64,000 bases of DNA, from the NCBI GenBank assembly GCA_030980935.1, contig GCA_030980935.1_3059.1. The stretch is one strand, 5' to 3'. The position numbers and the translations under genes were made by a program. Below the pieces are notes generated by a model that worked only from the letters and a program-made list of their open reading frames with translations, did not search any database and was not told the DNA's origin. Origin of the DNA: a phage. Shown one piece after another: positions 1 to 16,558 of this stretch (the stretch's first letter is position 1; the number at the start of each line of letters is the position of its first letter).

Positions 1-1229
1 CTGAAGATAAGTTTTATATTATTCCAACCCCACAGAATGCGGGTGAATCAGGCGGCATTTCTAATTTACGTCCGTTCTATATTACATTAAGTAATGGTAA
101 AGTTTCCATGGATCATGATGTAGATATCGGCGGCGGTAGATTTAAAGTAGAAGTGGCTGGAACTACTGCTAATCAACGCATAACAGTAAATATGGCATCA
201 GATGCTATTAGAATAAATGCTCCAACACAAGAGTCTTCTAACTTCATTCAAGGACGTAAGGCTGATGTGCCTAAATGGTATTTGGGTATTGGCGATGGCG
301 GCAACGTCGTTCGTATGCACAGCTACACATATTCACATGGTATTGCATTAAATTCTGATTCTGTCGATATTACTAAGCCTTTTAAAGTCGGAAATGCACA
401 ATTAGGAACTGACGGTAATATTACCGGTGGTTCAGGAAACTTTGCTAATTTAAACAGTACAATTGAATCATTAAAAACCGATATTGTTTCAAGTTATCCT
501 ATTGGAGCTCCTATTCCATGGCCAACGGATACTCCTCCTGACGGTTACGCTATTATGGAAGGCCAGACTTTTGATAAGTCTGCATACCCAAAATTGGCTA
601 TGGCTTACCCATCTGGCGTAATTCCAGATATGCGCGGGCAAACTATTAAAGGTAAACCAAGTGGTCGAGCTGTATTAAGCGCAGAAGCCGATGGTGTTAA
701 GGCTCATAGCCATAGTGCATCGGCTTCAAGTACTGACTTGGGTACTAAAACTACATCAAGCTTTGATTATGGTACTAAAACATCTTCAAGCTTTGATTAT
801 GGTACTAAGACTAGTAACACCACAGGAAACCATAACCATACAGTGAGTGGTAATACTAGTTCCGCCGGTGCGCACCAACACAACGAAGGGACGTATTTTT
901 CATCGTACGGATACTTTATGAACGGATACAATACTCGCCAGTCATCGGGAGCTGCCATCGAAACATCCAATAGACAAGGCATAGCGTTTTATGGTAAAAC
1001 CTCTAGTGCTGGTGCCCACACTCATAGTTGGTCAGGAACCACGAGTACTACAGGTAACCATGCTCATACTGTAGGTATAGGTGCTCATACCCATACTGTA
1101 GGTATAGGTGCTCATACCCACACGGTAGCAATTGGCTCACATGGTCATACTATCACTGTAAATAGTACAGGTAATACAGAAAACACGGTTAAAAACATTG
1201 CTTTTAACTATATCGTTCGTTTAGCATAA
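1..1229 (+). CDS. 37: Long tail fibre distal subunit gp37, C-terminal part (5' end lies outside window)
   Basis: Frame is open from base 1; C-terminus has HxH repeats ([16 protein letters not shown]) and ends [11 protein letters not shown] as remembered for T4 gp37; followed by gene 38 and t. Confidence 0.85.
741..812 (+). repeat. Tandem 30-bp coding repeat in gene 37
   Basis: ggtactaaaac(t/a)(a/t)catcaagctttgattat x2 plus partial third copy; encodes GTKT(T/S)SSFDY repeats. Confidence 0.7.
1060..1130 (+). repeat. Tandem 27-bp coding repeat (HxH motif) in gene 37
   Basis: gtaggtataggtgctcatacccatact repeated; encodes VGIGAHTHT units. Confidence 0.7.
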
Positions 1230-1233
1230 GGAG

Positions 1234-1249
1234 AGGGGCTTCGGCCCCT
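1234..1249 (+). terminator. UUCG-tetraloop hairpin between genes 37 and 38
   Basis: aGGGGCttcgGCCCCt; overlaps the gene 38 RBS region. Confidence 0.55.
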
Positions 1250-1256
1250 TCTAAAT

Positions 1257-1808
1257 ATGAAAATATATCATTATTATTTTGACACTAAAGAATTTTACAA
1301 AGAAGAAAATTACAAACCGGTTAAAGGCCTCGGTCTTCCTGCTCATTCAACAATTAAAAAACCTTTAGAACCTAAAGAAGGATACGCAGTTGTATTTGAT
1401 GAACGTACTCAAGATTGGATTTATGAAGAAGACCATCGCGGCAAACGAGCATGGACTTTTAATAAAGAAGAAATTTTTATAAGTGACATTGGAAGCCCGG
1501 TTGGTATAACCTTTGATGAGCCCGGCGAATTTGATATATGGACTGATGACGGTTGGAAAGAAGACGAAACATATAAACGCGTTTTAATTCGCAATAGAAA
1601 AATTGAAGAATTATACAAAGAATTCCAAGTTTTAAATAATATGATTGAAGCTTCTGTCGCGAATAAAAAGGAAAAATTCTATTATAAAAACCTTAAGCGG
1701 TTCTTTGCTCTTTTAGAAAAGCATGAGCATTTAGGTGGTGAATTTCCTAAATGGCCTGAAAAAGAACAGAAGCCTTGGTATAAGCGTTTATTCAAGCATT
1801 ACGTATAA
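1257..1808 (+). CDS. 38: Tail fibre assembly chaperone gp38 (T4-type, 183 aa)
   Basis: 183 aa ORF directly after gene 37; size and position match T4-type gp38 rather than the longer T2-type adhesin. Confidence 0.8.
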   Translation: MKIYHYYFDTKEFYKEENYKPVKGLGLPAHSTIKKPLEPKEGYAVVFDERTQDWIYEEDHRGKRAWTFNKEEIFISDIGSPVGITFDEPGEFDIWTDDGWKEDETYKRVLIRNRKIEELYKEFQVLNNMIEASVANKKEKFYYKNLKRFFALLEKHEHLGGEFPKWPEKEQKPWYKRLFKHYV

Positions 1809-1828: not shown

Positions 1829-2485
1829 ATGGCAGCACCTAGAATATCATTTTCGCCCTCTGATATTCTATTTGGTGTTCTAGATCGCTTGTTCAAAGAT
1901 AACGCTACCGGGAAAGTTCTTGCTTCCCGGGTAGCTGTCGTAATTCTTTTATTTATGATGGCGATTGTTTGGTATAGGGGAGATAGTTTCTTTGAGTACT
2001 ATAAGCAATCAAAGTATGAAACATACAGTGAAATTATTGAAAAGGAAAGAAATGCACGCTTTGAATCTGTCGCCCTGGAACAACTCCAGATAGTTCATAT
2101 ATCATCTGAGGCAGACTTTAGTGCGGTGTATTCTTTCCGCCCTAAAAACTTAAACTATTTTGTTGATATTATAGCATACGAAGGAAAATTACCTTCAACA
2201 ATAAGTGAAAAATCACTTGGAGGATATCCTGTTGATAAAACTATGGATGAATATGCAGTCCATTTAAATGGACGTCATTATTATTCCAACTCAAAATTTG
2301 CTTTTTTACCAACTAAAAAGCCTACTCCCGAAATAAACTACATGTACAGTTGTCCATATTTTAATTTGGACAATATCTATGCTGGAACGATAACCATGTA
2401 CTGGTATAGAAATGATCATATAAGTAATGACCGCCTTGAATCAATATGTGCTCAGGCGGCCAGAATATTAGGAAGGGCTAAATAA
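1829..2485 (+). CDS. t: Holin T
   Basis: 218 aa; N-terminus MAAPRISFSPSDILFGVLDRLFKDN and single TM segment match T4 holin; TATAAATA late promoter upstream. Confidence 0.9.
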   Translation: MAAPRISFSPSDILFGVLDRLFKDNATGKVLASRVAVVILLFMMAIVWYRGDSFFEYYKQSKYETYSEIIEKERNARFESVALEQLQIVHISSEADFSAVYSFRPKNLNYFVDIIAYEGKLPSTISEKSLGGYPVDKTMDEYAVHLNGRHYYSNSKFAFLPTKKPTPEINYMYSCPYFNLDNIYAGTITMYWYRNDHISNDRLESICAQAARILGRAK

Positions 2486-16132: not shown

Positions 16133-16558
16133 TTATTCCTTAAAATGAGCTTTCAGCATCTGATACAAAGACCATGCCTGTTCATTATTTTCAATAGTAA
16201 CTTTCATGACCGGGAATTCTGTGAAATCTTCTATTTGTTCTTGCTCTTTCTCTTCCTGCTCTTGCTCTTCAACTGCCTGATATGGATTTTCCACTTCATC
16301 AAAGAACCCAGCTTCGTTAGTAGAAAGCCAAATAAAGTTTTCGTCAAGGATATCACCATGTGTTGCATATCCAACTGTGCCAGTAGATGTCACAATTTTA
16401 GTAGGACGACCAAGATGGTCAACATCTAAAATTTTAAAAGGATGCATACCTAAACGGCGTGCATAGATTCCGTTATCAGTATGATCTTTAATAAAATTTT
16501 CTTGAGCTTGTTTATTTTTAAATTGATACCATTTATTAACTTCAAATCTAATAGCCAT
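16133..16558 (-). CDS. goF: Hypothetical protein, possibly GoF (141 aa)
   Basis: Size and position match T4 goF; acidic [11 protein letters not shown] tract; assignment by synteny only. Confidence 0.4.

Follow-up and report, generated by a model that had tools for sequence, protein, structure and literature searches.

The two tandem coding repeats found near the 3' end of gp37 in the phage DNA studied here are highly likely to be the two sides of one structural repeat of the long tail fibre, with units gained and lost as compensating pairs. This reading is carried by the anatomy of the repeats, by the homology of the protein to the tip of T4 gp37 in structure 2XGF, by a coupling rule for copy numbers that runs through the homologues of the module, and by a near-isogenic pair of phages that differ by two indels, one in each array. 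More broadly, it is likely that the gp37-type needle constitutes a ladder that lengthens or shortens in evolution only through compensating double indels, of 10 aa on one strand and 9 aa on the other, or of 14 aa on both strands nearer the tip. The window referred to throughout is the whole stretch of DNA that was analysed, 64,000 nucleotides of one strand from a phage contig (GCA_030980935.1_3059.1), and all positions are those of this window.

The repeats lie in the 3' part of a gene which begins before the first base of the window and which was listed among the open reading frames as ORF 108-1229, though the frame is open already further upstream (Table 1). The preliminary description, made from the letters of the window without database searches, had named this gene gp37, and the name is borne out both by the match to 2XGF and by the identity to Shigella phage JK45 (Tequatrovirus), which reaches 99.9% over window bases 1-1260, gp37 included; PHROG tail-fibre families were also matched by the protein. 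The window phage is a Tequatrovirus similar to Shigella phage JK45. Downstream, the ORF that follows gp37 has homologues in JK45 and related phages that carry the annotation 'tail fiber assembly', and is in turn followed by a holin gene. A G+C-rich inverted repeat, GGAGAGGGGCTTCGGCCCCTTCT, occupies positions 1231-1256 between gp37 and gp38, and a terminator is annotated at the equivalent position in some related phage records. A minus-strand ORF at 797-982 (61 aa) was considered and dismissed as a by-product of the coding strand, and no tRNA genes were found by ARAGORN across the 64-kb window.

Table 1. Coordinates of gp37, its proposed collar, needle and tip segments, and the neighbouring genes in the window.
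Feature	Position	Strand	Evidence or remarks
gp37, 3' part (long tail fibre distal subunit)	3-1229	+	Cut by the window start; open from base 3; stop codon 1227-1229
Collar domain, N-terminal part (Pfam PF07484)	504-647	+	aa 168-215, E = 8e-12; directly upstream of the stem
First HxH (HSH), collar end of the stem	705-713	+	Equivalent to T4 H883/H885 by the 2XGF alignment
Outgoing-strand unit 1, degenerate, 10 aa	714-743	+	Repeat family and unit parsing
Outgoing-strand units 2 and 3, 30-bp tandem array	744-803	+	TRF; gap against 2XGF; 30-bp indel against PhiZZ23; T4 and PhiZZ23 have only one of the two units
Outgoing-strand unit 4, degenerate, running into the second HxH	804-833	+	
Distal outgoing strand (HNH 831-839, HQH 873-881)	831-881	+	Motifs 14 aa apart (Phage_fiber-type spacing)
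Tip (head) domain, hypervariable	882-1016	+	Equivalent to T4 residues 932-959
Distal returning strand (HTH 1017-1025, unit STTGNHAHT 1044-1070)	1017-1070	+	14 aa apart
VGIGAHTHT x2, 27-bp tandem array (units 1071-1097 and 1098-1124)	1071-1124	+	TRF; 27-bp indel against PhiZZ23; one HxH predicted metal site per unit; T4 and PhiZZ23 have one unit fewer
Last returning-strand unit, VAIGSHGHT	1125-1151	+	Eighth HxH
C-terminal strand returning into the collar	1152-1226	+	Amino-acid sequence the same in T4 (2XGF alignment)
gp38-type tail-fibre assembly chaperone, 183 aa	1257-1808	+	phrog_105 'tail fiber assembly', E = 5e-45
Holin	1829-2485		After the gp38-type chaperone

At the DNA level, Tandem Repeats Finder (TRF) delimited two arrays within the 3' end of gp37, one with a 30-bp period at 741-813 (score 118; 2.4 copies with 86% matches) and one with a 27-bp period at 1065-1128 (score 114; 2.4 copies with 94% matches). 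They are the only arrays with a score above 100 in the whole 64-kb window, and are therefore not attributable to chance. Thus, the two tandem coding repeats reported in the preliminary description are real, and its observation that the 27-bp unit carries an HxH metal-site motif (VGIGAHTHT) is correct as well. Within the first array, units 744-773 and 774-803 are identical at 27/30 nt and share a perfect stretch of 23 bp at offset 30, starting from 756; in the second, 29 bp match perfectly at offset 27, and in a shifted register 1065-1091 equals 1092-1118, that is, a perfect tandem duplication. Both arrays are flanked by degenerate units, located at 714-743 and 804-833 for the 10-aa repeat and at 1044-1070 and 1125-1151 for the 9-aa repeat. 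The two unit lengths are multiples of three, and all observed variants are in frame. The only other TRF rows of the window were two weak, overlapping ones with 15/21-bp periods at 16238-16279 (scores 52-54).

The relation between both arrays becomes apparent when the protein is compared with T4 gp37. A phmmer search against the PDB matched window gp37 to 2xgf_A with E = 6.3e-96 (query residues 103-373 to chain residues 2-242), and the alignment, which extends over the whole chain, is interrupted by exactly 10 aa at the 30-bp array and by exactly 9 aa at the 27-bp array: relative to T4, the window has one more GTKTxSSFDY unit (+10 aa) and one more VGIGAHTHT unit (+9 aa), which map to opposite strands of the stem in the T4 tip. 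Accordingly, eight HxH motifs are present in window gp37 and seven in T4, with spacings of 42, 14, 48, 14, 9, 9 and 9 residues in the former and of 32, 14, 37, 14, 9 and 9 in the latter, and the window motifs are distributed over the outgoing and returning strands in T4 order. The T4 tip in 2XGF comprises a collar, a six-stranded needle with seven HxH-bound Fe ions, and a head. The window protein shares with it the collar, the C-terminal strand, the order of the HxH motifs and the downstream gp38-type chaperone, but has one rung more in the needle and a different, longer head. Window gp37 is a normal tip with one stem rung more than T4, an ordinary part of a well-known protein.

Domain boundaries for T4 gp37 are given in a later article, which cites the structure paper: the collar spans residues 811-881 and 1010-1026, the stem 882-931 and 960-1009, and the receptor-contacting tip 932-959 (PMC6957217). 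The chain doubles back at the head, giving rise to the six strands of the needle (PMC12609058). By alignment to this architecture, the FDY array falls in the outgoing strand, the His array falls in the returning one, and the tip is encoded between them (882-1016), a segment that probably contacts the receptor. The preliminary description had located both repeats in the receptor-recognising tip of the C-terminal needle region; the needle was the right place, but the arrays belong to its collar-side stem and the tip lies between them. Two contacts of T4 quoted in the same article, G921-F970 and H929-G964 (PMC6957217), yield an antiparallel register in which i + j is approximately 1891, and this register puts the T4 FDY unit (895-904) opposite residues 987-996. 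The contacts proposed here within each rung derive from this sequence register and the two literature-quoted contacts, not from coordinates. Further, the Pfam family Phage_fiber (PF03335), built on a 14-aa unit, was matched at 21.5 bits (E = 2e-4, best at aa 230-243), marginally above its 20-bit curated cut-off; its period resembles that of the distal-stem HxH motifs, which are 14 aa apart, but it does not describe the 10-aa and 9-aa periods of the arrays.

On these grounds we propose a model in which the chain would leave the collar, run down the needle, form the receptor-binding head and run back, so that three chains, each going out and back, would assemble a six-stranded antiparallel needle. 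Each collar-side rung would pair a histidine-free 10-aa unit of the outgoing strand, TKTxSxFDYG or an xDLG variant, with a 9-aa unit of the returning strand, V-x-I-G-x-H-x-H-T, lying opposite to it; the HxH motif and its counterparts in the other two chains are expected to coordinate a single axial metal ion. Window gp37 would thereby have four such rungs, two of them being near-identical tandem copies, and T4 would have three, so that eight metal sites are predicted instead of seven, together with a gain in stem length of roughly 2.5-3 nm. Since the register between the strands has to be kept, a change of unit number on one strand would survive only with a matching change on the opposite one, and a mismatched fibre would be expected to fail. 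The changes themselves would originate when the short perfect direct repeats present in each array (23 bp and 29 bp) recombine or slip, and the conserved units also act as crossover points in the swapping of tips between phages.

Copy numbers were compared in 614 homologous sequences, obtained from a protein search, 50%-identity representatives, viral contigs, bacterial genomes and 13 T4-like phage loci, the latter corresponding to 12 phage records and one 170.8-kb IMG/VR contig (L001). Using anchors looser than DMRG and NTVKN, 577 of the 614 could be parsed, resulting in 290 unique stem-plus-tip modules. Throughout the survey modules, the gap between the first and the second HxH equals 22 + 10n residues and the C-terminal run contains n + 1 spacings of 9 residues, with n from 0 to 4 in both cases. 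T4 and the Citrobacter phage PhiZZ23 each have one unit fewer per array than the window, and other homologues carry 0 to 4 FDY units. The 14-aa spacings are also equal in number on both strands (0/0, 1/1 or 2/2). The count of 10-aa units matches that of 9-aa His units in 289/290 unique modules, compared with 42% of modules expected to match if the copy numbers were independent. The fit was obtained automatically for 285 modules, and for four more after degenerate sites were read by eye: one outgoing unit has HDH in place of FDY (P0219), one HxH is lost (P0218), HxH sites are lost (L130), or one His unit has a 2-aa deletion (L111, from the symbiont Candidatus Erwinia dacicola). A larger change obeys the same rule, since the outgoing strand of P0191 has a 20-aa duplication and its returning strand a mirroring one of 18 aa.

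As the sequences surveyed are interrelated, and raw counts therefore overstate independence, tips sharing at least 60% identity were grouped, which resulted in 94 families. More than one stem class was present in 10 of them, corresponding to at least 12 transitions, every one of which is coupled. A second type of evidence for the pairing comes from residue composition. With rungs paired by counting from the collar, methionine or leucine, as opposed to isoleucine or valine, occupies position 3 of the returning unit in 14/18 cases opposite xDL(G) units, all of them internal rungs, and in 3/393 opposite FxY (FDY-type) units (Fisher p = 6e-20, a value that ignores relatedness and so overstates independence). 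Offsetting the pairing by one rung abolishes this association. In T4 the covarying residues are Y904 and I986, whose numbers add up to 1890, in agreement with the literature register. Between xDL units and an HGH middle residue the association was weak.

These counts bear directly on what the preliminary description had proposed, namely that copy-number change by slippage or recombination offers a simple route to host-range variation. In its full form, this alternative holds that the two arrays slip independently and that single changes alter fibre length and metal sites, shifting the host range. We consider it unlikely. The 23-bp and 29-bp perfect repeats are indeed well suited to slippage, copy number does differ among relatives, and one module appears changed in one array only, but the arrays are matched in the remaining 289 of the 290 modules and all of the transitions counted are coupled. 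If only one array slipped, the two hairpin strands would no longer be aligned with each other, and for that reason the route is not a simple one. The proposed mode of change survives in part: junctions look like recombination or slippage at direct repeats, as detailed below, but the arrays change as pairs. The exception is a T4-like metagenomic contig (L333; IMGVR_UViG_3300030021_000020, locus about 816-1400) with two FDY units and a single VGIGAHTHT. It may be a real single-array variant, perhaps a mismatched intermediate of the paired changes that we favour, or it may be an assembly in which the perfect repeat was collapsed.

Several modules of the survey showed peculiarities of their own. 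The complete outgoing unit of the P0219 stem is TKSTSNHDHG, with H-D-H where the family has F-D-Y, so that the F and Y of FDY may be oriented like the histidine pair of HxH. At least three copies of the fibre module are present in the insect symbiont Candidatus Erwinia dacicola (L103, L104 and L111), and the deletion in L111 destroys one HxH (GAH--TV), which suggests decay. Furthermore, near-identical modules, with 65% identity to the query, were retrieved from unrelated genomes, among them Chromatium, Pseudomonas, Shewanella, Neobacillus, Paenibacillus and Kitasatospora (L081-L092, L143 and similar); several of the contigs are about 48.4-48.5 kb in length with coverage near 1, and these modules look like lambda-type phage DNA contaminating the assemblies rather than real prophages.

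A change of both arrays can be followed among the closest relatives of the window. Its tip is present in four phages of the collection only, JK45 (host as written in the record, E. coli DH5alpha), PhiZZ6 and PhiZZ23 (host of both, Citrobacter rodentium DBS100), and JLBYU31 (host, an E. coli K-12 MG1655 derivative); the stem of JK45, PhiZZ6 and JLBYU31 has the architecture of the window, and that of PhiZZ23 has the architecture of T4. Over window positions 757-1260, PhiZZ23 (MT176425) is identical to the window apart from one substitution and two precise in-frame indels, by which it has 30 bp fewer in the FDY array and 27 bp fewer in the His array. Upstream of 756, PhiZZ23 diverges from the window and switches to Ge15-like sequence, so that the FDY indel coincides with a recombination junction located within the 23-bp repeat; the indel in the His array falls within the perfect 29-bp repeat. 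We infer that PhiZZ23 probably lost one rung, given that the long form occurs in most T4-like relatives.

Differences of this kind between close relatives could be artefacts of assembly, the tandem repeats having been collapsed in PhiZZ23. The 27-bp array is a perfect duplication of the sort that assemblers can collapse, and such an error is plausible for the lone mismatched contig described above. The FDY units, however, differ at 3/30 positions and would not collapse, and both PhiZZ23 indels are in frame and compensate each other. Moreover, the short form is that of the crystallised T4 protein, and hundreds of independent sequences show the same two forms, short and long. For these reasons we regard an artefact as extremely improbable.

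The arrays also coincide with sites where tips are exchanged. Compared with six T-even relatives, identity to the window falls to 25-60% only across about 885-1010, within the head. SHBML-50-1 matches the window at 100% as far as 800, diverges across 801-1070 and regains 90-100% identity from 1071 onwards; its divergent segment is bounded by the arrays, which identifies the two arrays as the junctions of the exchanged cassette. By sequence comparison, this agrees with the 'His-box' recombination that was reportedly described for the distal fibre genes of T-even phages by Tetart et al. 1998 (J Mol Biol). As in the His-box model, conserved GxHxH stretches flank a variable specificity segment in the window and homology breaks there. 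The His-box model concerns the swapping of specificity segments, and in the present case short homology also explains the matched gain and loss of stem units.

Such exchange raises the question of whether the units change in place at all, the alternative being that the repeats are old and static, with copy-number differences arising only through exchange of stem-plus-tip cassettes within conserved flanks. Cassette exchange clearly occurs, SHBML-50-1 and most T-even relatives differing from the window only in the segments just given, and the two-unit state is widespread, its copies having diverged in many lineages (20-23/27 nt identical). Nevertheless, the DNA of the window and that of PhiZZ23 are identical between the two indels, the tip included, and the units therefore changed in place. 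Freshly identical copies were found, in addition, beside diverged ones with the same or a near-identical tip: the FDY units are identical in L001 (30/30 nt) and match at 27/30 in Ge15, with near-identical tips, and the His units are identical in vB_EQ1 (27/27 nt) and match at 20/27 in moha, with the same tip. Static repeats are thus quite unlikely. The clustered protein sets, which collapse close relatives, contained no near-identical modules with differing copy number. The repeat itself had already caught the attention of an annotator, since in Escherichia phage moha (L158, MN850590), a Mosigvirus, a 56-bp 'repeat_region' is annotated inside gp37 at 1708-1763 of that locus, on the His array.

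Regarding host range, the receptor-contacting tip lies between the arrays and not in them, which argues against host-range shifts by slippage of the repeats. PhiZZ6, with the long stem, and PhiZZ23, with the short one, differ neither in their tip nor in their isolation host, and the link to host range proposed in the preliminary description was not seen here: no association between rung number and host range emerged from our results, and a literature search for a paper on the host range of PhiZZ6 and PhiZZ23 retrieved none. Nor do the arrays behave as a phase-variable contingency locus. Units in multiples of three do not switch frame or expression on and off, and copy number does not vary freely in near-identical genomes, three of the four phages with the window's tip being alike and one differing in both arrays.

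The same fibre module is found in thousands of prophage fibres, and T4 gp37, lambda Stf and P2-type prophage fibres are known to share this C-terminal module (PMC9659904). The fibre tips of Bas63 (Felixounavirus) have six or seven di-histidine motifs, and needle length is noted to go with the number of HxH motifs (PMC12609058). This relation, together with the doubling back of the chain at the head, is paralleled in the window, but that work presents neither a pairing rule at the level of units nor a near-isogenic pair. The literature searched contained no statement of the pairing rule, of how many independent changes were coupled, or of the near-isogenic pair, though a specialist acquainted with the hairpin topology would expect them.

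In T4-like phages, and in thousands of fibres of lambda-, P2- and Mu-like prophages, tips of the gp37 type serve as the receptor-binding modules, and efforts to re-engineer them for phage therapy are under way. The paired units, of 10 and 9 aa or of 14 and 14 aa, show where chimeras can be joined and where the needle can be resized without breaking the register, and with the pairing rule the sequence by itself suffices to predict how many metal sites there are, from 4 to 10 HxH sites per chain in the survey. Further, the comparison of JK45 and PhiZZ6 with PhiZZ23 constitutes a natural control for whether needle length has any effect on host range. If the ladder reading is true, it would provide an explicit design rule for the length and metal content of the needle, as well as a ready system for examining whether needle length influences adsorption through LPS or O-antigen layers.
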